From the IMG/VR virus record IMGVR_UViG_3300021400_004456: a stretch of DNA of 64,000 nucleotides; one strand, 5' to 3'. The position numbers were made by a program, and so were the translations under genes. Source of the stretch: a virus. Taxonomy: Duplodnaviria > Heunggongvirae > Uroviricota > Caudoviricetes. Below, piece by piece: positions 4,037 to 53,787 of this stretch. Each line of letters begins with the position of its first letter. Positions within the stretch are counted from its first letter, which is position 1. Under the pieces are notes generated by a model. The model had not been told where the DNA came from. It saw only the letters and a list, made by a program, of their open reading frames with translations, and made no database searches.

Positions 4037-4049
4037 AAACACCTAATAT
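4037..4049 (+). promoter_or_regulatory. class-A motif
   Basis: aaacacctaatat, 39 nt before ATG 4088 and directly after the terminator. Confidence 0.5.
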
Positions 4050-5612: not shown

Positions 5613-5642
5613 AAAGGTTTGGATTAATTCCAAGCCTTTTTT
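5613..5642 (+). terminator. Rho-independent terminator
   Basis: Stem aaaggtttgga/tccaagccttt followed by tttt. Confidence 0.6.
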
Positions 5643-5684
5643 AAAACATAAAAGAAGCATTGAAAAGTTATCGAGGTGATGTAA

Positions 5685-17175: not shown

Positions 17176-17250
17176 CCCTTTAATTAATTCTTTTTCATTT
17201 TTTCTTTAAAACATAAAAATGTCGATATAAAAAAATATGGAGGAAATGTG

Positions 17251-18360: not shown

Positions 18361-18373
18361 AAACACCTAATAT
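18361..18373 (+). promoter_or_regulatory. class-A motif
   Basis: aaacacctaatat, 28 nt before ATG 18401. Confidence 0.5.
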
Positions 18374-30278: not shown

Positions 30279-30290
30279 AAACACCTAATA
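30279..30290 (+). promoter_or_regulatory. class-A motif
   Basis: aaacacctaata(c), 23 nt before ATG 30313. Confidence 0.45.
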
Positions 30291-31730: not shown

Positions 31731-31742
31731 TTTAAAACATAA
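31731..31742 (+). promoter_or_regulatory. class-B motif
   Basis: tttaaaacataa, 38 nt before ligA ATG. Confidence 0.5.
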
Positions 31743-31779: not shown

Positions 31780-33759
31780 ATGTTAGAAGAAATTAAACAA
31801 AAAATTGAATTATTAACAAAATATTTAAATAAGGCTGCTATGGATTATTACACTTATGATAATCCGACTATCAGTGATGATGAATATGATAGATGCTATG
31901 CTGAATTAGTGGAACTTGAAAAGAAGTATCCACAATTTAAGGTGCCTGGTTCACCAACTGAACGTGTTGGAGATAAAGTCTTAACAAAGTTTGAAAAGGT
32001 TGAACATAAGCAAAAGATGTTATCTATTTCAGATGTATTTAATACTACTGAAGTTGAAGATTGGCAAAAAAATATGGAAAAGGAATATCCTGATATTACT
32101 TATTGTGCCGAACTTAAAATTGACGGTTTATCAGTATCTGCAATTTATAAGGATGGTGTATTAGTTCAAGCTTCTACAAGAGGTAATGGTGCTGTAGGAG
32201 AAGATATTACTAATAATGTAAAAATGATAAACTCTATTCCATTAGTTTTAAATGAACCTTTAAATATTGAAGTTAGAGGTGAAATTTATATGCCAAAAGC
32301 ATCTTTTGAAGAAGTTAACGCTTCAAGATTCGCTCAAGGTTTAGAATTATTTGCAAATCCTAGAAACTGTGCTTCTGGAACTATTAAGTCTTTAGATCCT
32401 AGAATTGTTAAGGAAAGAAAATTAGATAATTTTATGTATCAAATTATTGATCCTGAAAATTATGGTTTAAAAACTCAACACGATGCTGTAATGTATTTAA
32501 AGAAGTTAGGTTTTAAGATTTCAAGTGAACCATTTGAAACTAAGAACTTAGAAGAGCTTATGAATTATATTGAACGTTTTAGAACAGAAAAAGATACTTT
32601 ATCTTATCCTGTAGATGGTATGGTTGTCAAAGTAAATGAATTCAATGTTTACAATGATATTGGCTATACATCTAAAACTCCAAAGTTTTATATAGCTTAT
32701 AAGTATCCTGCTCCAATGGCTGAAACAATTTTAAATAGTATTACTTATCAAGTTGGAAGAACTGGTAAAGTAACTCCTGTAGCAAACTTTAATACAGTTA
32801 ATATTTCCGGAACTGATGTTTCTCGTGCAACTTTAAATAATGAAGATTATATCATTATGAAAGACATTCGTGTAGGTGATACAATTAGAGTTAGAAAATC
32901 TGGCGAAATTATTCCAGAAGTTGCAGAAGTTGTTTTAGAAAAAAGACCTGTTTCATCTAAACCATTTGAGTTTATAAAAATGTGTCCTTGTTGTAATCAA
33001 CCTCTTCATAAAAAAGAAGATATGTCTGATTATTTTTGCTTGAACGAAAATTGTTCATCAAGAAGAGTAAATTCTTTAATTCATTTTGCTTCTAGAGAGG
33101 CGATGAATATTGAAGGCTTAGGAGATAGAACTTGTGAAATGTTCTATGAACTAGGCTTACTTACAGACATTCTATCTATTTTTAAGTTAAAAGAAAAGCG
33201 TGAAACTTTACTTAGAATAGAAGGCTTTGGTGAAAAGTCTGTTAATAATTTATTACAGGCTATTGAAGATTGTAAGAAGCGTGATGGAGCAAACGTATTA
33301 TTTGCATTAGGAATTAAAAATGTAGGATTATCAACAGCTAAAGACTTATTAGATGTCTTTGAAAATATTCCCGCCTTATCTACTGCAACTTATGATGAAT
33401 TAATTTCAATTGATGGAATTGGTGAAACTGTAGCAAATAGTATTATTGAATATTTCCATAAGAATACTTTTATTTTAGGTGATTTAATGGATTTAAATAT
33501 CAATTTACATCATCAAATTAAAAAGGCTGAAAGTAATGCTTTAAATGGTGCTACATTTGTAATAACTGGAACATTAAGTAAGCCTAGAAAAGAAATTGAA
33601 GATTTAATCACTAGTCACGGTGGTAAGATTTCAGGTTCTGTTTCTAAAAAGACAAATTATTTAGTTTGTGGTGAGGCTGCCGGTTCAAAGCTTGCTAAAG
33701 CTCAAGAGTTAGGAGTTAAAATTCTTTCCGAACAAGAATTACTAGATTTGACTCGATAA
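31780..33759 (+). CDS. ligA: NAD-dependent DNA ligase
   Basis: Adenylation motif ELKIDGLS (KxDG), OB domain, Cys4 zinc finger (CPCC..C..C), HhH repeats and C-terminal BRCT-like domain. 659 aa. Confidence 0.9.
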   Translation: MLEEIKQKIELLTKYLNKAAMDYYTYDNPTISDDEYDRCYAELVELEKKYPQFKVPGSPTERVGDKVLTKFEKVEHKQKMLSISDVFNTTEVEDWQKNMEKEYPDITYCAELKIDGLSVSAIYKDGVLVQASTRGNGAVGEDITNNVKMINSIPLVLNEPLNIEVRGEIYMPKASFEEVNASRFAQGLELFANPRNCASGTIKSLDPRIVKERKLDNFMYQIIDPENYGLKTQHDAVMYLKKLGFKISSEPFETKNLEELMNYIERFRTEKDTLSYPVDGMVVKVNEFNVYNDIGYTSKTPKFYIAYKYPAPMAETILNSITYQVGRTGKVTPVANFNTVNISGTDVSRATLNNEDYIIMKDIRVGDTIRVRKSGEIIPEVAEVVLEKRPVSSKPFEFIKMCPCCNQPLHKKEDMSDYFCLNENCSSRRVNSLIHFASREAMNIEGLGDRTCEMFYELGLLTDILSIFKLKEKRETLLRIEGFGEKSVNNLLQAIEDCKKRDGANVLFALGIKNVGLSTAKDLLDVFENIPALSTATYDELISIDGIGETVANSIIEYFHKNTFILGDLMDLNINLHHQIKKAESNALNGATFVITGTLSKPRKEIEDLITSHGGKISGSVSKKTNYLVCGEAAGSKLAKAQELGVKILSEQELLDLTR

Positions 33760-33765
33760 AAAATT

Positions 33766-33790
33766 AAAGTCCTTTCGAGGACTTTTTTTG
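33766..33790 (+). terminator. Rho-independent terminator after ligA
   Basis: Stem aaagtcct/aggacttt (loop ttcg) followed by ttttttt. Confidence 0.7.
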
Positions 33791-33801
33791 TTAAAACATA
33801 A
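33791..33801 (+). promoter_or_regulatory. class-B motif opening the ORF-free island
   Basis: ttaaaacataa directly after the ligA terminator. There is no protein gene downstream. Confidence 0.45.
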
Positions 33802-33914
33802 TGGTAGTAGATATTTTCTAATAAAGAGGAAATGTTTAGAGAAAACGTTAGTTTATAAAAACAAAGGTTATTTATTTTAAGAGATTCATAAACGTCTTTA
33901 AATAATGTTAGTTT

Positions 33915-33980
33915 CATCTTTGCTGACGCAGCAAAGATGATCCTGCGTAATGGTCGCAGGATCGAGTGGTTTTTCTCGTA
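33915..33980 (+). ncRNA. structured RNA-like module M1 (hairpin A + GATC-closed hairpin B + GAGT)
   Basis: Stem A is catctttgctg/cagcaaagatg (11 bp). Stem B is gatcctgcg/cgcaggatc (9 bp). These are followed by gagtgg and ttttt. Confidence 0.35.
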
Positions 33981-34067
33981 ATTCAAAAAGAAACTTTAAT
34001 TCTACAATGAATGAAAGCTTATTATTATTAAAAAGTTTGTAGAAGCTTATAATAAGTGTTAATTTAA

Positions 34068-34160
34068 AATTCATTTACGCAGAACGTATAAGCTTCCAGC
34101 TTCTACGAGCTGAGTAAATGAATTTGATCTTATCCTTCAGATAAGATCGAGTTCATTTTC
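34068..34160 (+). ncRNA. structured RNA-like module M2
   Basis: Stem A is aattcattta/taaatgaatt (10 bp, long interior). Stem B is gatcttatc/gataagatc (9 bp). These are followed by gagttc and tttt. The terminator at 34181-34209 follows. Confidence 0.35.
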
Positions 34161-34180
34161 TTTTTGAGTTTTAAAAAATA

Positions 34181-34209
34181 AGATTGCTTAACGGCAATCT
34201 TTTTATTTT
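34181..34209 (+). terminator. Rho-independent terminator inside the ORF-free island
   Basis: Stem agattgc/gcaatct (loop ttaacg) followed by ttttatttt. Confidence 0.6.
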
Positions 34210-34214
34210 GTGTA

Positions 34215-34227
34215 AAACACCTAATAT
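34215..34227 (+). promoter_or_regulatory. class-A motif inside the ORF-free island (no protein gene downstream for about 540 nt)
   Basis: aaacacctaatat directly after terminator 34181-34209. Confidence 0.45.
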
Positions 34228-34399
34228 TATATAGAAAACAAACATTTTGTTTAAAAATATTTGCAAAAATGTAAGGGCTTGATATGAAAAAATAAGTGCG
34301 TAAATGCTTTTATCAAGTGTTAACATTAACCCGATCCTTCAAAGAAGGAGTCGGGTTGATTGACCAACGGTCAATCGATTTCCTTTTGTTTTCTAGAAA

Positions 34400-34432
34400 G
34401 TCATCTTTTATTTTTATAAAGGTGACTTTTTT
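34400..34432 (+). terminator. terminator-like hairpin
   Basis: Stem gtcatcttt/aaaggtgac followed by tttttt. Confidence 0.4.
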
Positions 34433-34579
34433 CTTTTTCAAAAATAAAAAATAAACATAATTAAATTGTTAATTTTTCATTTAGAAAAAAATAACTTGAG
34501 AAAAATTTATAATAGTCAAAATGACAAAAGGCATAAAACATTAAATAGGTTCTTGACTACTTGCTTTATGTGTATAGTC

Positions 34580-34670
34580 CAGATTTCAGTAACATATGAA
34601 ATTTATTTCATAAATTTCATAAGTAACAGAAATCTGATCTTTATCATTCTGATAAAGATCGAGTTACTTT
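34580..34670 (+). ncRNA. structured RNA-like module M3 (candidate sRNA about 34585-34711)
   Basis: TTGACT (34553-58) and TATAGT (34573-78) lie upstream. Stem A is cagatttc/gaaatctg. Stem B is gatctttatc/gataaagatc (10 bp). These are followed by gagtta, and a terminator at 34684-34711. Confidence 0.35.
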
Positions 34671-34683
34671 CTCAAAAACAAAA

Positions 34684-34711
34684 AAGATTATCATATGATA
34701 GTCTTTTTTTT
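34684..34711 (+). terminator. Rho-independent terminator closing candidate sRNA unit M3
   Basis: Near-palindrome agattatca-tatgatagtct followed by T8. Confidence 0.55.
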
Positions 34712-34769
34712 ATGAAAACATAACAAAATTGTTTTAAAATAAATTAAGAGAAAAAATACGGAGGAATTT

Positions 34770-35648
34770 ATGAATGGTATTTTAAATATAAAAGAACTTG
34801 AAAAAGTATTTACTAAAAATGGTGCATACACTTTCTTACTATCGTTAAAAAATAAAGGTTTATATGCAGGTTCATTAACTGCATCGATGACAAAAAAGGA
34901 ATTAATATATATTATTTTTGAATCATTCTGCCAAGAGTGGATTCCAACTATAAGGGAAGCATTTGAAGCTTCTGAAAAATACAAGACTTATAGTTCTTCA
35001 TACGTTAAGAGATATATTAATTCGGTTCAAAAGGAATGTAAGAAATTAAATATTGATCTGAATGAAAAATATGCTCAGTTCGATACAATTAATTCTACTT
35101 GTTTCCCGCCAAAAACGATGTCGGTTACAAGAAAGTCATTCAGGGATACAATAAAGAAGACTAAGCGTGAAGCTGAAATTGCTTGTTGTCATAAGAATTG
35201 GGCAATGGCTAGAAGTTTAGCAGCTGAAAGTTTGCTTTATAAAAACATTCCTGACTTAATTCCAAGTTTTGGAAATGTAGCTGGTGCGGATGTTTGGTTA
35301 AACTGTATGTCATTTGATGTAAAGAATTGTGGATATATACCTCAAGATTTTATTGATACACATACAACTAAGGAATTATCCGGAGTTGAATATGCTAAAA
35401 AACATCCTGCTGAATTAGCAAAATTCTTATACGAAAATCAAAATGTTTTAAGAACTAATGGACTTGATCCAAATAAAATTAAGAATTATAGAATTTTTAT
35501 TGTTTCAACTAATCCAGATAAGAATCAGATAGATTTAGATGCTATGAATGAAGCAATTAAAAACACTGATTTTAGTAAATTAATTAATATTAAATTTGAA
35601 TATGCTAATCAGATACATAACACAAGTTGTTACGTAATATTCTACTAA
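34770..35648 (+). CDS. hypothetical protein
   Basis: 292-aa ORF with CGGAGG RBS. Confidence 0.5.
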   Translation: MNGILNIKELEKVFTKNGAYTFLLSLKNKGLYAGSLTASMTKKELIYIIFESFCQEWIPTIREAFEASEKYKTYSSSYVKRYINSVQKECKKLNIDLNEKYAQFDTINSTCFPPKTMSVTRKSFRDTIKKTKREAEIACCHKNWAMARSLAAESLLYKNIPDLIPSFGNVAGADVWLNCMSFDVKNCGYIPQDFIDTHTTKELSGVEYAKKHPAELAKFLYENQNVLRTNGLDPNKIKNYRIFIVSTNPDKNQIDLDAMNEAIKNTDFSKLINIKFEYANQIHNTSCYVIFY

Positions 35649-35761: not shown

Positions 35762-37957
35762 ATGAATGACATTTTTGTTATAAAGAAAAATGGTGCTTTA
35801 GAACCTTTTTCTAACGAGAAAATTATTAAAGCGGTTAATAAAGCTCAAGCTAGAGTTGATGTTGAATTAACAAAAGCAGAGCAAGATTTTATTTGTTCTT
35901 ATGTAGTTAAAAAAATTGAAAATAACTGCCCCGAAATAGAAGGACAAATTAGAATGGGCGTGTATGAATTACATCCAATTGTAGAAGAAGCCCTTGAACA
36001 AGTTAATAAAAAAGTTGCAAAATCTTATAAAGAATATCGTGATTATAAAAAGCAAAATAATGAAATGCTTGAAACTATCTTATCTGAAAATGAAACTTTA
36101 GAAACTGAGGGTAATAAAGATAACGCAAATGCGGATTCAAGACTTATTACAACAAAACGTTTCTTAGAGGGTTGTGCTTTATCAAAGGCATCATATCAAA
36201 GATTTTATTTATCTCCAAAAGAAGTTCAAGCTAATAATGATGGATATATTTATATTCACGATTTAGCATTAAGAAAATATACTTTTAACTGTTGTGTTGC
36301 GAATTTTCAAAATATTTTAAATGGCGGATTTATGATGGGTTCCATTCATTATGTAGAACCTAAAACATTAGAGGCATTTTTTAACGTTGCTGGAGACGTT
36401 ACTTTATCTGCCTCATCTCAGCAATACGGTGGTTTCAGTATTCCTGAATTTGATACTCTTTCTGCAAAGTATGCAAAATTAAGTTTTGATAAATATTTTG
36501 AAGAAGAGAAAACAAATATTGAAAAGAAATTAGCTCGTAGAGGGTTATCTTTAACCGAAGAAGATATCGAAGATTGTCGTCAAACGGCTTTAGATAAAGT
36601 TCGTGCTGATTATAGACAAGGTTTCCAAGGATTAGAATGTATGTTAAATTCTTGTGCTAATGCTAAAGGCGACTATTCCTTCGTATCTTTAAGCTTTGGA
36701 CTAGGCGAAGGTATTTTTGAGCAAATGGCAACAGAAGAAATATTAAAAGTAAGAATGGAAGGTCAAGGCCCAAAAGGTCATAAAAAACCTGTATTATTCC
36801 CTAAATTAATTTTCTTATATGATGAAAAGAAACACGCAGAAGGTTGTCCTTTACATCATTTATTCTTAATGGCTCGTGATTGTTCTTGCGTTTGTATGTA
36901 TCCTGACTACTTTAATGTAAGACAAGTTGAAGAAGAAACAGCAAGAAATTATGAAAAATATGGAAAAGCAGTTACCCCAATGGGTTGTCGTTCTGCTGTA
37001 TCACCATTCTATGAAAGTGGAAATTATACTCAAGTAGATGAAAATGATATTCCTGTTACCCAAGGAAGATTTAATATTGGAGTTGTTTCTTTAAATCTAC
37101 CAATGATTTTAGCTAAGGCTCGTAAGAATAAAAAGGATTTCTATCAAGTATTAGACTATTACCTAGATATTATTCGTGGTATTCATAAAAAAACTAGAGC
37201 TCAATTATCTAAACTTAAAGCATCTTCTAACCCATTAATGTTTATGGAAGGTGGTTTATGGCACGGTAATTTACAAGCAAACGATACTATCGAACCTATT
37301 ATGAAAGCGGCAACAGCTTCGTTTGGTATTACGGCTTTAAATGAACTTCAAAGATTATATAATGGTAAATCTTTAATTGAAGATAATCAATTTGCACTTG
37401 AAGTTAGCCAGTATATTTTCAATAAATTAAAGGAATTTAAAGCAGAAGATGGCATAGCTTATTCAATCTACGGTACGCCTGCAGAAAGCCTTTCGGGAAA
37501 ACAAGTTCTTCAATTTAGAAACAAATTTGGAATAATTGAAGGCGTATCAGATAGAGATTATTTCTCTAACTCATTCCATTGTCACGTTTCAGAAAATATT
37601 ACTCCAATTGAAAAGCAAAAATATGAAGAACAATTCTGGCCATATTTTTCTGGTGGTAGAATTCAATACAATAGAATTGCAAGACCTGATATAAACAAGG
37701 ATGCAGTTTTAACTTGTATAAATGAAGCTATGAAAAGAAAATTCTATTATGGTGTAAATTTCCCTGCATCATATTGTGAAAAATGTGGAAAATCGTTTAC
37801 TGAACCAGTTAATTATTGTCCACATTGTGGTGCTCCTGAAAAATTCATTACTACTTATGATAGAGTATGTGGATACTTAGGACAAACTAGAGTTGCTGGT
37901 GATACAAGATTAAATAAAGCAAAATTATGCGAAATCAAAGATCGTAAATCTATGTAA
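35762..37957 (+). CDS. nrdD: anaerobic ribonucleoside-triphosphate reductase (class III)
   Basis: N-terminal ATP-cone (VIKKNGALEPFSNEKI), C-terminal Zn ribbon (CEKCG..CPHCG) and glycyl-radical motif RVCGYLG. 731 aa. Confidence 0.9.
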   Translation: MNDIFVIKKNGALEPFSNEKIIKAVNKAQARVDVELTKAEQDFICSYVVKKIENNCPEIEGQIRMGVYELHPIVEEALEQVNKKVAKSYKEYRDYKKQNNEMLETILSENETLETEGNKDNANADSRLITTKRFLEGCALSKASYQRFYLSPKEVQANNDGYIYIHDLALRKYTFNCCVANFQNILNGGFMMGSIHYVEPKTLEAFFNVAGDVTLSASSQQYGGFSIPEFDTLSAKYAKLSFDKYFEEEKTNIEKKLARRGLSLTEEDIEDCRQTALDKVRADYRQGFQGLECMLNSCANAKGDYSFVSLSFGLGEGIFEQMATEEILKVRMEGQGPKGHKKPVLFPKLIFLYDEKKHAEGCPLHHLFLMARDCSCVCMYPDYFNVRQVEEETARNYEKYGKAVTPMGCRSAVSPFYESGNYTQVDENDIPVTQGRFNIGVVSLNLPMILAKARKNKKDFYQVLDYYLDIIRGIHKKTRAQLSKLKASSNPLMFMEGGLWHGNLQANDTIEPIMKAATASFGITALNELQRLYNGKSLIEDNQFALEVSQYIFNKLKEFKAEDGIAYSIYGTPAESLSGKQVLQFRNKFGIIEGVSDRDYFSNSFHCHVSENITPIEKQKYEEQFWPYFSGGRIQYNRIARPDINKDAVLTCINEAMKRKFYYGVNFPASYCEKCGKSFTEPVNYCPHCGAPEKFITTYDRVCGYLGQTRVAGDTRLNKAKLCEIKDRKSM

Positions 37958-38010
37958 AGGGATAAAAGAGTTGTTTGTTTTAGCAGGCAACTTTTTTATT
38001 CAAAAAAATT

Positions 38011-38023
38011 AAACACCTAATAT
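38011..38023 (+). promoter_or_regulatory. class-A motif
   Basis: aaacacctaatat, 36 nt before ATG 38059. Confidence 0.5.
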
Positions 38024-38058
38024 TTATAATAATTTTTAATATATTCAAGGAGAAAGAA

Positions 38059-38325
38059 ATGAAAGTCAAATATACAGATGAAAATAATTTTGCTTATACT
38101 AAAGGATTAACCTTAAACAAAGAATATGAGGCAACTTTATGCGAAATTCATAACTCTATGTCTTATGTTCACCTTATAAATGATGAAGGAAAAGAAGCGT
38201 CTTACACTAGTGTATTGTTTGACGAAGAATTTCAAAACGAGTTTCATAAAGCAATTTATGATTTCAACAGAAATCAAAGACCTGTCGGCTATCGTTATGG
38301 AATTTTCGAAAAAAATTATTTATGA
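38059..38325 (+). CDS. hypothetical protein
   Basis: 88 aa with AAGGAG RBS. Confidence 0.45.
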   Translation: MKVKYTDENNFAYTKGLTLNKEYEATLCEIHNSMSYVHLINDEGKEASYTSVLFDEEFQNEFHKAIYDFNRNQRPVGYRYGIFEKNYL

Positions 38326-38407
38326 TAAAGTTTGAACTTGAAGAAAACACTGAGAAAAAGCATAGCTAAAATGTAGTAAAGTGAACTATTAAAAAGGAGA
38401 TGTTGTA

Positions 38408-38614
38408 ATGCAAATTACTTTAAAATTTGAAGGCATTGACTGTGCGAGTTGTGCTAGTAAACTGGAAAATAAATTAAATAAAATTAAAGGCGTAGAAGCT
38501 AATATTAGCTTTATTGCAGGCAAGATTTTATTGAATTTAGAAACAGAAGAACTTTTAGAAGTAGTTAAAAAAACTTGTTATAAAGTTGAACCAGATATAA
38601 AATTATCTTTATAA
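38408..38614 (+). CDS. heavy-metal-associated (HMA) domain protein, CopZ-like metallochaperone fold
   Basis: GIDCASCA (the MxCxxC-type metal-binding loop) followed by ..IKGVEANISFIAGKILLNLE.., the ferredoxin-like HMA pattern. 68 aa. Confidence 0.6.
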   Translation: MQITLKFEGIDCASCASKLENKLNKIKGVEANISFIAGKILLNLETEELLEVVKKTCYKVEPDIKLSL

Positions 38615-38637
38615 AATAAAACCAGAGGTAAATATTA

Positions 38638-39270
38638 ATGAGAAAAATGCTTATATATGTTCCTAAAGAAAAACCTTATTTATATGTTAATCCTGATGTG
38701 TTAAAAACATCTTATGATAGATATATTCTTTCTAATGAAAAATATTTTTCTGCATTCGGAGAATCATTAATACCTTTAAATGGAAAAATTATGGGTGAGT
38801 TTGAATATGAAATTGAACACGTTATGACTAATGGATTATATGATAGATTTAGCACTTCTAAAACCGAGCAAGAAGAATTGTTAAAAAAGTCTTGCTTAAC
38901 TTTAGAAGAAATGCACAATTATCTTTTAGGAAATAAAGATGGTGGTTGGTCAATCAAAATTAAAAATCTTAATATATATGACCGGCCTAAAGAATTAAGT
39001 GATTTTTATAAAGACGATAAAGGCTTCCAAACTGCTGTTGAATATTATAATTGGTATTTACCTGCTGATTGTAAATTTATTCATCCTATAGATAGAGCTC
39101 CTCAAAATATGATGTATGCAAGAGATAGGATGCTTAATGAATATATTTTAATCTCAATCAGATCTAAGTGGTCTTATGAAATTGCTAAAGGCAATAAAAC
39201 ATTTGAAATTCGTAGAAAAATTTTAAATGAAATGTATAAACGATATTGTTCAGGAGAGTTTTATGAGTAA
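38638..39270 (+). CDS. hypothetical protein with C-terminal ASCH-like segment
   Basis: ILISIRSKWSYEIAKGNKTFEIRRK resembles the ASCH-domain core (..SIKP.YA..I..G.KT.ELRR). The assignment is tentative. Confidence 0.45.
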   Translation: MRKMLIYVPKEKPYLYVNPDVLKTSYDRYILSNEKYFSAFGESLIPLNGKIMGEFEYEIEHVMTNGLYDRFSTSKTEQEELLKKSCLTLEEMHNYLLGNKDGGWSIKIKNLNIYDRPKELSDFYKDDKGFQTAVEYYNWYLPADCKFIHPIDRAPQNMMYARDRMLNEYILISIRSKWSYEIAKGNKTFEIRRKILNEMYKRYCSGEFYE

Positions 39271-53711: not shown

Positions 53712-53787
53712 AAGCATAATAAAAATAATAAGTTTTTTTGTTAAAACATAATAAAAATGACTTCAATAAATATTAGGAGGAAATGTA

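Follow-up and report, generated by a model that had tools for sequence, protein, structure and literature searches.

Several kinds of structured RNA with which a phage locus might be compared have been described. The putL and putR RNAs of phage HK022 are about 70 nt long, consist of two stem-loops, occur as two per genome downstream of promoters and need no protein (PMC9378689); their structure, which involves an RNA triplex, is shared between the copies while the sequence is partly different (PMC9378689). A put element is recognised as an RNA of about 70 nt, its two stem-loops immediately following an early promoter, that occurs in at least two copies and acts in cis on the zinc-binding domain of the RNA polymerase beta' subunit, by which downstream terminators are suppressed. 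Small RNAs (sRNAs) of virulent phages have been found through transcriptomics, such as the sRNAs of PAK_P3 (PMC4933390) and the Grad-seq RNAs of phiKZ (PMC8545117), and type III toxin-antitoxin and AbiF systems use a protein-neutralising RNA, such as ToxI or the abiF-motif RNA RCd22 (bioRxiv 10.1101/2025.04.15.648962). Among the non-coding RNAs of virulent phages, the fold is known for few and the function for hardly any. We describe here four paralogous structured units (U1 to U4) that lie on the + strand in a gap of about 1 kb downstream of the ligase gene ligA, in the first 64 kb (the window) of a 163,889-bp contig of an uncultured rumen/gut phage (ENA ERZ1756080; IMG/VR record IMGVR_UViG_3300021400_004456). 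The units share one fold, and this fold is under selection.

The original prediction had placed three copies (M1 to M3) of a two-hairpin module in this gap, in which a hairpin A runs into a hairpin B closed by GATC. All three exist, with their B hairpins at the coordinates and with the sequences given (Table 1), but the total is four, U4 having been overlooked. Scanning both strands of the window for stems of at least 7 bp that end in ATC and are followed by GA, we found exactly 4 sites, all on the + strand in the gap, compared with an average of 0.44 in shuffled controls. The motif GATCGAGT occurs three times in the 64 kb, each time inside the gap. An extended hairpin remarked on earlier at 34330-34355 is present and proved to be helix A of U4, the partner of the missed fourth helix B. 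Nor is the element a module of two hairpins: it is a multi-helix unit of 140-190 nt, composed of P1, H0, A and B.

A covariance model (R1) was built from the loop-trimmed cores of U1, U2, U4 and U1', the divergent counterpart of U1 in the relative L122, with U3 excluded. Its five best matches in the window all fell in the gap on the + strand. U1 (54.4 bits) and U4 (48.4 bits) are both training sequences, and U3 was the top non-training match (21.2 bits, E~0.015). In that match the H0 columns of the model fell on helix A and the score was carried by B, the tail and the long hairpin, so that it says nothing on the H0 of U3. The strongest match outside the gap reached 15.1 bits, and therefore these 64 kb hold no further copies.

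Each presumed transcription unit was folded whole by minimum free energy, including that of U1', and one P1/H0/A/B architecture was recovered in the five folds (four units of the window and U1'). The fold stability z-scores of the units were -5.5 to -11. P1 is the closing helix, which joins the U/C-rich tail that follows GAGU to purine-rich sequence lying 130-170 nt upstream; it is formed by UAGAAAACAAA/UUUGUUUUCUA in U4, and in U2 it is a predicted helix of 14 bp that includes an 11-nt perfectly complementary run, TCAAAAAGAAA. H0 is a three-tier hairpin: its outer helix (4-5 bp) is separated by a 1x1 mismatch from a step of AA/UU (or AG/UU), and this by a second 1x1 mismatch from an inner helix of 8-9 bp, which is closed by a conserved G-U and carries a loop containing GUAAAUGCUU. 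Helix A begins 0-3 nt after H0 and is highly variable in length (9-25 bp). Helix B stands flush against A with zero nt between them, its GAU/AUC base (the first three pairs) is invariant, and GA(G)U comes next; in U2 and U3 the GAGUU pairs upstream with AAUUC or AAUUU, lengthening P1. We defined the family by an H0 with G/UU/A opposite R/AA/G, a helix A flush with a GAU...AUC helix B, and GA(G)U, and found all of these in U1, U1', U2 and U4. U3, in which H0 is reduced, retains its AA/UU tier as well as both helices, A and B, and the tail.

The T-rich stretch after GAGT is probably the 3' strand of P1 and not a free tail or terminator. To judge this helix, its complementary runs were compared with those found by the same tails in random 200-nt windows of the phage, and they were longer. 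The runs were 11 nt in U2 and in U4 and 8, 7 and 7 nt in the other three units; the per-unit P values were 0.385, 0.027 (U2), 0.007 (U4), 0.074 and 0.395, and combined by Fisher's method (by hand) they gave P~0.003. P1 is supported overall, weakly for U1.

Two other assignments of these segments were rejected. The B hairpins are flagged by a terminator scan, but an intrinsic terminator has a GC-rich stem with a U-tract 0-2 nt after it, and here the U-run starts 6-7 nt past the stem, behind GAGUNN, and is predicted to pair upstream as P1; because of this spacing the B hairpins are not terminators, and the true terminators stand 20-30 nt beyond them. The conserved 24-nt box GTAAATGCTTTTATCAAGTGTTAA, considered as a promoter, is the loop and 3' strand of H0 with its 14 covarying pairs, and occurs nowhere else in the window.

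Since MAFFT alignments of whole units were structurally inconsistent, the helices were registered by hand on the conserved unpaired landmarks and the loops were trimmed, and these cores are a curated seed and not an unbiased alignment. In H0, with 14 pairs, 67/67 cells were paired and 11 pairs were altered on both sides; 0/500 shuffles matched this, and only 33-46% of cells paired when the partner was slid. Helix B has 8 pairs, 100% paired, with 5 altered on both sides. For the whole H0+A+B core of the four copies, all of the 29 pairs are kept (100% paired; 30-43% in slid controls) and 21 are altered on both sides, figures which describe a shared architecture and are not an unbiased test. The earlier claim of a covarying family under selection for secondary structure is supported, and the selection acts on the transcribed strand. 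The G-U that closes the inner helix of H0 is conserved in 4/4 copies and would be a C-A mismatch on the opposite strand. The flanks of the units are asymmetric, since only one side has GA(G)U and the U-rich run. In 3/4 units the + strand folds better than its complement, and all copies are on the transcribed strand. These four observations point to action at the RNA level, or at least on the + strand only.

A pseudoknot had been proposed for M2. Its complementarity (34039-47 with 34098-106) is real (9 bp, P~0.001) and is confined to that copy. A pairing between the linker and the H0 loop is suggestive in U1/U1', with two compensated changes in homologous columns, and in U3. We also observed that the 5' strand of helix A in U2 (34071-34079, CAUUUACGC) is perfectly complementary to the H0 loop of U4 (34298-34306, GCGUAAAUG) and nearly complementary to the H0 loop of U1', so that an inter-unit pairing of U2 helix A with the U4 H0 loop is possible. 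In U3 the 25-bp hairpin of helix A contains a regular motif, three symmetric A-A mismatches 2 bp apart (C-A-GU-A-AC-A-UAUG...), which is the same in all three haplotypes save for compensated flips.

Through the 292-aa ORF (open reading frame) downstream of the gap, we obtained contigs of the same phage species from other rumen/gut samples, giving three haplotypes (including L122 and L127), and a metagenome scan added two more contigs with the L122-type locus. Between haplotypes the flanking genes show an overall difference of 3.1-5.1%, and 7-11% of their third codon positions differ. The differences in U2 are one substitution and a 3-nt indel, both in the loop of helix B; terminator T2 has one change, in its loop; in U4 a change affects the loop of helix B, and 3 nt are inserted in that of helix A. 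In U3 of L122 and L127 two adjacent pairs of helix A are flipped (UU/AA to AA/UU) and the spacer after P1 is changed. No uncompensated stem change was seen in U2, U3 or U4 across the three haplotypes.

The leader and U1 (block 33802-33977) are swapped in L122 (3128-3316) for a sequence of about 60% identity with the same fold. In H0, A and B, the pairs that changed between U1 and U1' with compensation number at least 10, no change is disruptive, and the leader hairpin of L122 has 14 bp instead of 12 bp, through compensated insertions. The flanks of the block are 95-100% identical. Because the block differs at about 40% of aligned positions between such flanks, the swap implies recombination with a more distant, unsampled relative that would also carry the RNA family.

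Decayed coding sequence had been named as the alternative should relatives carry an ordinary gene at this place. They do carry extra genes, but between the units, and all four units are kept. Orphan genes of 94 aa and 150 aa stand in the relatives between the U4 terminator and the U3 promoter, and L127 also has a 149-aa paralogue; the cassette hot spot corresponds to 34432-34462 of the window, 3765-4700 of L122 and 40-1520 of L127, and in L126 the 94-aa gene has a premature stop. The cassette joints are in the terminator T-run and the class-B motif, outside the units, which hold their place while the protein-gene cassettes turn over.

Two promoter-like motifs reported earlier in the gap, class B (33792-33801) and class A (34215-34226), are real, genome-wide and strand-specific. 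Class A, AAACACCTAATA, has 16 copies, all on the + strand, where 0.9 are expected (e.g., 646-657, 4037-4048, 18361-18372, 30279-30290 and 34215-34226), and class B, TAAAACATAA, has 20 copies on the + strand where 1.5 are expected (e.g., 5642-5651, 17207-17216, 31733-31742, 33792-33801 and 53742-53751). They typically lie 25-45 nt 5' of a strong Shine-Dalgarno (SD) sequence and ATG, just past a terminator T-run, and nearly every gene looks like an insulated terminator-promoter-gene unit. Neither motif is sigma-70-like, and a phage-encoded or phage-modified polymerase likely reads them. Sigma-70/SigA promoters have -35 and -10 hexamers 16-18 nt apart and a start 5-9 nt downstream; the TTGACT/TATAGT pair proposed as a sigma-70 promoter of M3 is 14 nt apart and lies inside the H0 hairpin of U3.

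The three terminators expected in the gap are present (34180-34201, 34396-34430 and 34680-34709), in addition to that of ligA (33766-33785), and terminator-like sites number 13 in 2.5 kb compared with 0.7 in shuffles. All units have the orientation of the coding strand, with the phage's own class A or class B motifs upstream of them, and an intrinsic terminator follows all of them except U1. From the motif positions we infer three transcription units (U1+U2; U4; U3), with class-B, class-A and class-B-like promoters, respectively, each ended by a terminator. Because this layout of promoter motif, 5' hairpin or P1, fold, terminator and next promoter matches that of the protein genes, three independent non-coding transcription units are the simplest description. 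At the start of transcription unit 1 (33829-33868), SD-like AAGAGGAA/AAGAGGAAATG directly precedes the ATG of an 8-codon ORF (MFRENVSL), which has 2 codons in L122. Since this region is predicted to form the 3' arm of the leader hairpin, translation is improbable, but the ORF may be what is left of a lost gene's start.

Table 1. Features of the ligA-nrdD region in the window.
Feature	Position	Strand	Remark
ligA, NAD-dependent	31780-33759	+	
Gap without conserved ORF	33760-34769		Directly after ligA
ligA intrinsic terminator	33766-33785	+	T-run merges into class-B motif
Class-B promoter-like motif TTTTTGTTAAAACATAA	33785-33801 (core 33792-33801)	+	Presumed promoter of transcription unit 1 (U1+U2)
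Leader hairpin of transcription unit 1	33808-33838	+	12 bp; predicted fold
U1 (M1)	33839-33977	+	No terminator of its own; probably co-transcribed with U2
U1 P1	33839-45/33971-77	+	
U1 H0	33859-33914	+	
U1 helix A	33916-33938	+	
U1 helix B	33939-33963	+	gatcctgcg/cgcaggatc
U1 GAGU	33964-67	+	
U2 (M2)	33980-34170	+	Predicted fold
U2 P1	33980-93/34157-70	+	
U2 P1b	33998-34002/34149-53	+	AAUUC/GAGUU
U2 H0	34008-34066	+	
U2 helix A	34067-34125	+	Long
U2 helix B	34126-34148	+	gatcttatc/gataagatc
Terminator T2	34180-34208	+	Closes transcription unit 1
Class-A promoter-like motif	34209-34234 (AAACACCTAATA at 34215-34226)	+	Presumed promoter of transcription unit 2
U4	34232-34395	+	Fourth copy, new here; from folds and R1
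U4 P1	34232-42/34385-95	+	
U4 extra hairpin	34246-67	+	
U4 H0	34268-34327	+	
U4 helix A	34328-57	+	
U4 helix B	34358-34376	+	gattgacc/ggtcaatc (GAUUGACC/GGUCAAUC), then GAUUUCC
Terminator T4	34396-34436	+	
Class-B-like promoter motif AAATAAACATAA	34447-34461	+	Transcription unit 3; in all haplotypes
Leader hairpin of transcription unit 3	34468-34495	+	
U3 (M3)	34496-34675	+	Predicted fold
U3 P1	34496-503/34668-75	+	
U3 P1b	34504-08/34661-65	+	
U3 H0	34530-34579	+	Reduced
U3 helix A	34581-34635	+	25 bp
U3 helix B	34636-34660	+	gatctttatc(a)/(t)gataaagatc
Terminator T3	34680-34712	+	
Class-B promoter motif of the 292-aa ORF	34707-34723	+	
292-aa orphan ORF	34770-35648	+	ATG at 34770
nrdD	35762-37957	+	

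Searches for known families gave no assignment. Rfam 15 (4227 covariance models, among them those of riboswitches, ribozymes, 6S, Y RNA, pRNA, C4, EAR, abiF, ROOL and GOLLD) had 0 matches at gathering thresholds in the whole window, and at E<=10 the region 33600-34900 had sub-threshold matches at chance level, the best of them to PyrR (30.4 bits compared with a gathering score of 54), without the PyrR loop motif. ARAGORN detected 0 genes for transfer RNA or transfer-messenger RNA in the window, and the arms of the units are 8-25 bp long and without a T-loop motif. The gap had no blastn match among 50,697 phage records. The GATC-stem module, suggested earlier as worth searching for in related genomes, was not found beyond this phage species: scans with patterns, four on IMG/VR and a fifth on 185,579 genomes of bacteria and archaea (patterns GATC...GATCGAGT...TTTC, GATCCTG...CAGGATCGAGT, GATCTT...AAGATCGAGTT and the H0 box) gave chance matches only, none with the hairpins or neighbouring helices, although diverged relatives could escape because the patterns required exact motifs. 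R1 found nothing in 844 kb of candidate loci from these scans.

A mimic of a CRISPR repeat (an RNA anti-CRISPR) or a mini-array was rejected, as helix B differs at 5/8 pairs and there are no direct repeats above 76-81% identity; to our knowledge the units match no CRISPR repeat class. CsrA-type GGA loops, a hammerhead core, a k-turn and anticodon-loop mimicry were judged by eye and none fitted. A type III toxin-antitoxin or AbiF RNA was also rejected, with no abiF match and with neighbouring proteins that have no PADLOC, Pfam or PHROG assignment and match no defence family.

The units are a previously undescribed RNA family within a known kind, the phage-encoded structured non-coding RNAs. That the gap encodes structured small RNAs, the reading already put forward in the original prediction, is supported by the fold, the covariation and the compensation between haplotypes. 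The invariant nucleotides, which are B's GAU/AUC base, GA(G)U, the internal loop of H0 and some of its terminal loop, cluster round the junction. They do so while the helices covary and helix A varies two-fold in length, as is typical where a single partner recognises an RNA by its folded core. The junction is therefore most likely the surface on which one common partner docks, probably a protein of the host or the phage. The four paralogous, complex-folded RNAs would then act in trans as scaffold, decoy or sponge, and several diverged copies would raise the dosage or tune the affinity. We tentatively favour such trans-acting, protein-binding RNAs with a conserved junction for a common putative partner, at somewhat less than even confidence.

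Several points weigh against this reading. The structures were read from the same sequences that they are meant to explain, and the hairpins helped to find the copies, which is an ascertainment bias. The family is in one phage species (three haplotypes), and nearly all covariation therefore comes from paralogues. The low divergence of U2 and U4 may be due partly to recent recombination and not to constraint, and one template switch might account for both of the adjacent flips in U3. P1 is weakly supported in U1 and U1' (P~0.39 each), and the pairing of linker and H0 loop has no significance over all units. Promoters and RNA ends were placed from motifs. Finally, the 292-aa neighbour is without a detectable family, its predicted structure is unusable, and nothing points to a partner.

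The main rival, possible if rather unlikely, is that the units are instead cis-acting elements of transcription, either a processive antiterminator like HK022 put, Bacillus EAR or Tn916 canT, or a ligand- or protein-sensing leader that controls the next terminator. Each unit does stand between a promoter motif and an intrinsic terminator, on the strand of a long array of co-directional genes. A genome in which a terminator follows almost every gene would have a use for such a device, and in U4 the 3' strand of P1 abuts the terminator stem (34395/34396). The put RNAs are likewise multi-copy and promoter-proximal, with a shared structure and partly different sequences (PMC9378689), and RNA-only antiterminators, canT and EAR, exist in mobile elements of Bacillota (PMC11658703). 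In the antiterminator version, the nascent unit would modify its own RNA polymerase, and transcripts from the three promoters would so pass T2, T4, T3 and the terminators after them to reach the 292-aa gene, nrdD and more distant genes. However, such read-through is unneeded, because every downstream gene has a class-B promoter of its own right after the terminator, and U4 with its terminator precedes only another non-coding unit in this haplotype. Four tandem copies exceed any known put, EAR or canT arrangement, inspection found no alternative antiterminator pairing with the 5' arms of the terminators, and Rfam gave no EAR or riboswitch match, its sole leader-like one being the PyrR match at 30.4 bits against 54.

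Going further, we might speculate that the units are a new RNA class with tertiary structure (the junction and possibly a pseudoknot), serving as an anti-host decoy of a defence or RNA-processing protein or as a protein-independent reprogrammer of RNA polymerase in a genome rich in terminators. Either would be an RNA mechanism of phages for which no family has been described; we consider this unlikely.

Sibling base-pairing sRNAs, whose U/C-rich stretch (UUUUCUC, UUUCCUUUU) or loops would pair with the purine-rich regions at which ribosomes bind mRNAs of the host or the phage, are quite improbable. Diverged copies with promoter and terminator, and a pyrimidine-rich stretch between structured domain and terminator, make a layout that resembles the sibling sRNAs of Bacillota, e.g., LhrC1-5 or csRNAs. 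The phage genes here do have purine-rich SD regions, but complementarity to SD sequences is expected by chance at 27% GC. Against this explanation, 4/5 folds predict that P1 sequesters the pyrimidine tail, and the loops are the least conserved parts; GA(G)U, the most conserved single-stranded nucleotides, are too few for a seed.

An origin or packaging role, which had also been suggested, belongs with the reading of the locus as a DNA-level signal, that is, an origin, priming, packaging or recombination site of hairpin-forming DNA. We found 7 GATC sites within the 1-kb gap despite a depletion of this sequence throughout the window (P=1.6e-4), and the gap is the largest non-coding stretch within the replication/nucleotide-metabolism module, has a very AT-rich stretch (34432-34545) and is a hot spot of cassette gain and loss. 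All four copies and their asymmetric flanks are nevertheless on one strand, on the opposite of which the conserved G-U would become C-A; no iteron family was found, and the cumulative GC skew rises steadily without a turning point. Relatives have 0.9-1.4 kb of genes inserted in the AT-rich stretch, which is thereby split, and the cassette joints are in terminators and class-B promoters, not in the units. A DNA-level signal is thus very unlikely.

Least probable, and hardly credible, are non-functional remnants (a decayed gene, piled-up terminator-like hairpins or selfish repeats), for which the SD-like AAGAGGAAATG with the 8-codon ORF at the start of transcription unit 1 and the gain and loss of cassettes at the locus might speak, but all four units are kept in every haplotype while the surrounding genes vary, helices are spared by substitutions or restored by compensation, the copies have in common a multi-helix architecture that is ordered and includes conserved unpaired nucleotides, they are too diverged and too clustered for a repeat resembling miniature inverted-repeat transposable elements, and there is no conserved ORF.

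The window has a GC content of 27%, with essentially all genes on the + strand. The gap lies inside a replication and nucleotide-metabolism module of a primase-like gene, two orphan genes, ligA, the 292-aa orphan ORF, nrdD and a PolC-like polymerase gene. As had been stated, it is an island of about 1 kb without coding capacity, and no ORF conserved between haplotypes was found in it; its 3' neighbour is not nrdD, as had been stated too, but the 292-aa ORF. The 292-aa and 150-aa neighbours have no homologues beyond this phage species among 5.8 billion proteins, and single-sequence AlphaFold gave an unusable model of the 292-aa protein (predicted local distance difference test score 44.6). After nrdD, the gap at 37957-38638 also varies between haplotypes: in L122 (8188-9200) it has genes of 88 aa, 138 aa (weak acetyltransferase match) and 68 aa (HMA domain), and in the window only the 88- and 68-aa ORFs.

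The ligA product is a full-length bacterial-type NAD-dependent ligase, the closest homologues of which, at 51-54% identity, are metagenome proteins; the few matches with a source name are from gut Bacillota. This suggests that the gene may have been captured from the host lineage, which would also be a clue to the host, probably a member of the Bacillota. As a guide to phage relatives ligA is poor, with no relatives in IMG/VR and the nearest homologues bacterial at 54% identity. GATC is two-fold depleted across the window (73 found, 157 expected). CATG (0 compared with 137 expected), CGCG (0 compared with 8.4) and GTAC (36 compared with 88) are avoided too. Because these four palindromes are rare while AATT, TGCA and others have the expected frequency, the depletion suggests that restriction by host systems of NlaIII, DpnII/MboI and RsaI type may have been avoided.

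One locus here offers four natural variants of an elaborate fold, with the haplotypes as natural experiments in compensatory mutation, and its conserved junction nucleotides are clearly set apart from helices that covary freely. In practice the value of the locus is limited in that the family has been seen so far in one uncultured phage species. If protein binding or RNA polymerase modification is true, the units would be a new RNA tool of phage takeover or anti-defence in gut and rumen Bacillota.

Among known systems, the nearest analogues in function are the HK022 put RNAs, the phage small RNAs and the protein-neutralising RNAs. The surroundings of the units recall the promoter-early stem-loop (PeSL) cassettes of T4-type phages, reportedly described by Arbiol et al. 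in 2010, where repeated terminator and promoter joints flank small shuffled cassettes; this fits the turnover of the 94-, 150- and 149-aa genes and the swap of U1, and concerns the surrounding cassette architecture, not the structured units. ROOL, GOLLD and HEARO are, like the units, complex RNAs of phages or prophages and of rumen and gut metagenomes, located in ORF-free gaps, but they are single units of 300-800 nt and Rfam families, none of which matched here even at E<=10. The type III toxin-antitoxin and AbiF systems have the same order of promoter, repeated structured RNA, terminator and protein gene and are found on phages and prophages of Bacillota; their RNAs are short near-identical tandem repeats, or carry the abiF motif, beside a recognisable toxin (ToxN/AbiF/Abi_2), whereas the units are long and diverged. 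Comparable phage RNAs are also the stable RNAs 'species 1/2' of T4. Together with those of PAK_P3 and phiKZ, they are RNA genes from promoter to terminator in ORF-free islands of large lytic-type phages, but they are single-copy or linked to transfer RNAs and none has the architecture of the units, of which there are four paralogues with one core.

The put RNAs have no sequence similarity to the units, which are longer (140-190 nt), have a closing helix and three or four inner helices, and stand in four tandem copies; here the downstream genes have their own promoters, the host is probably one of the Bacillota, and the polymerase may be the phage's own. EAR and canT of Bacillota, as RNA-only antiterminators (PMC11658703), are looser analogues. 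What put and the units have in common is that both are phage-encoded and multi-copy, lie on the transcribed strand with a promoter upstream and a terminator downstream, and are built of adjacent stem-loops.

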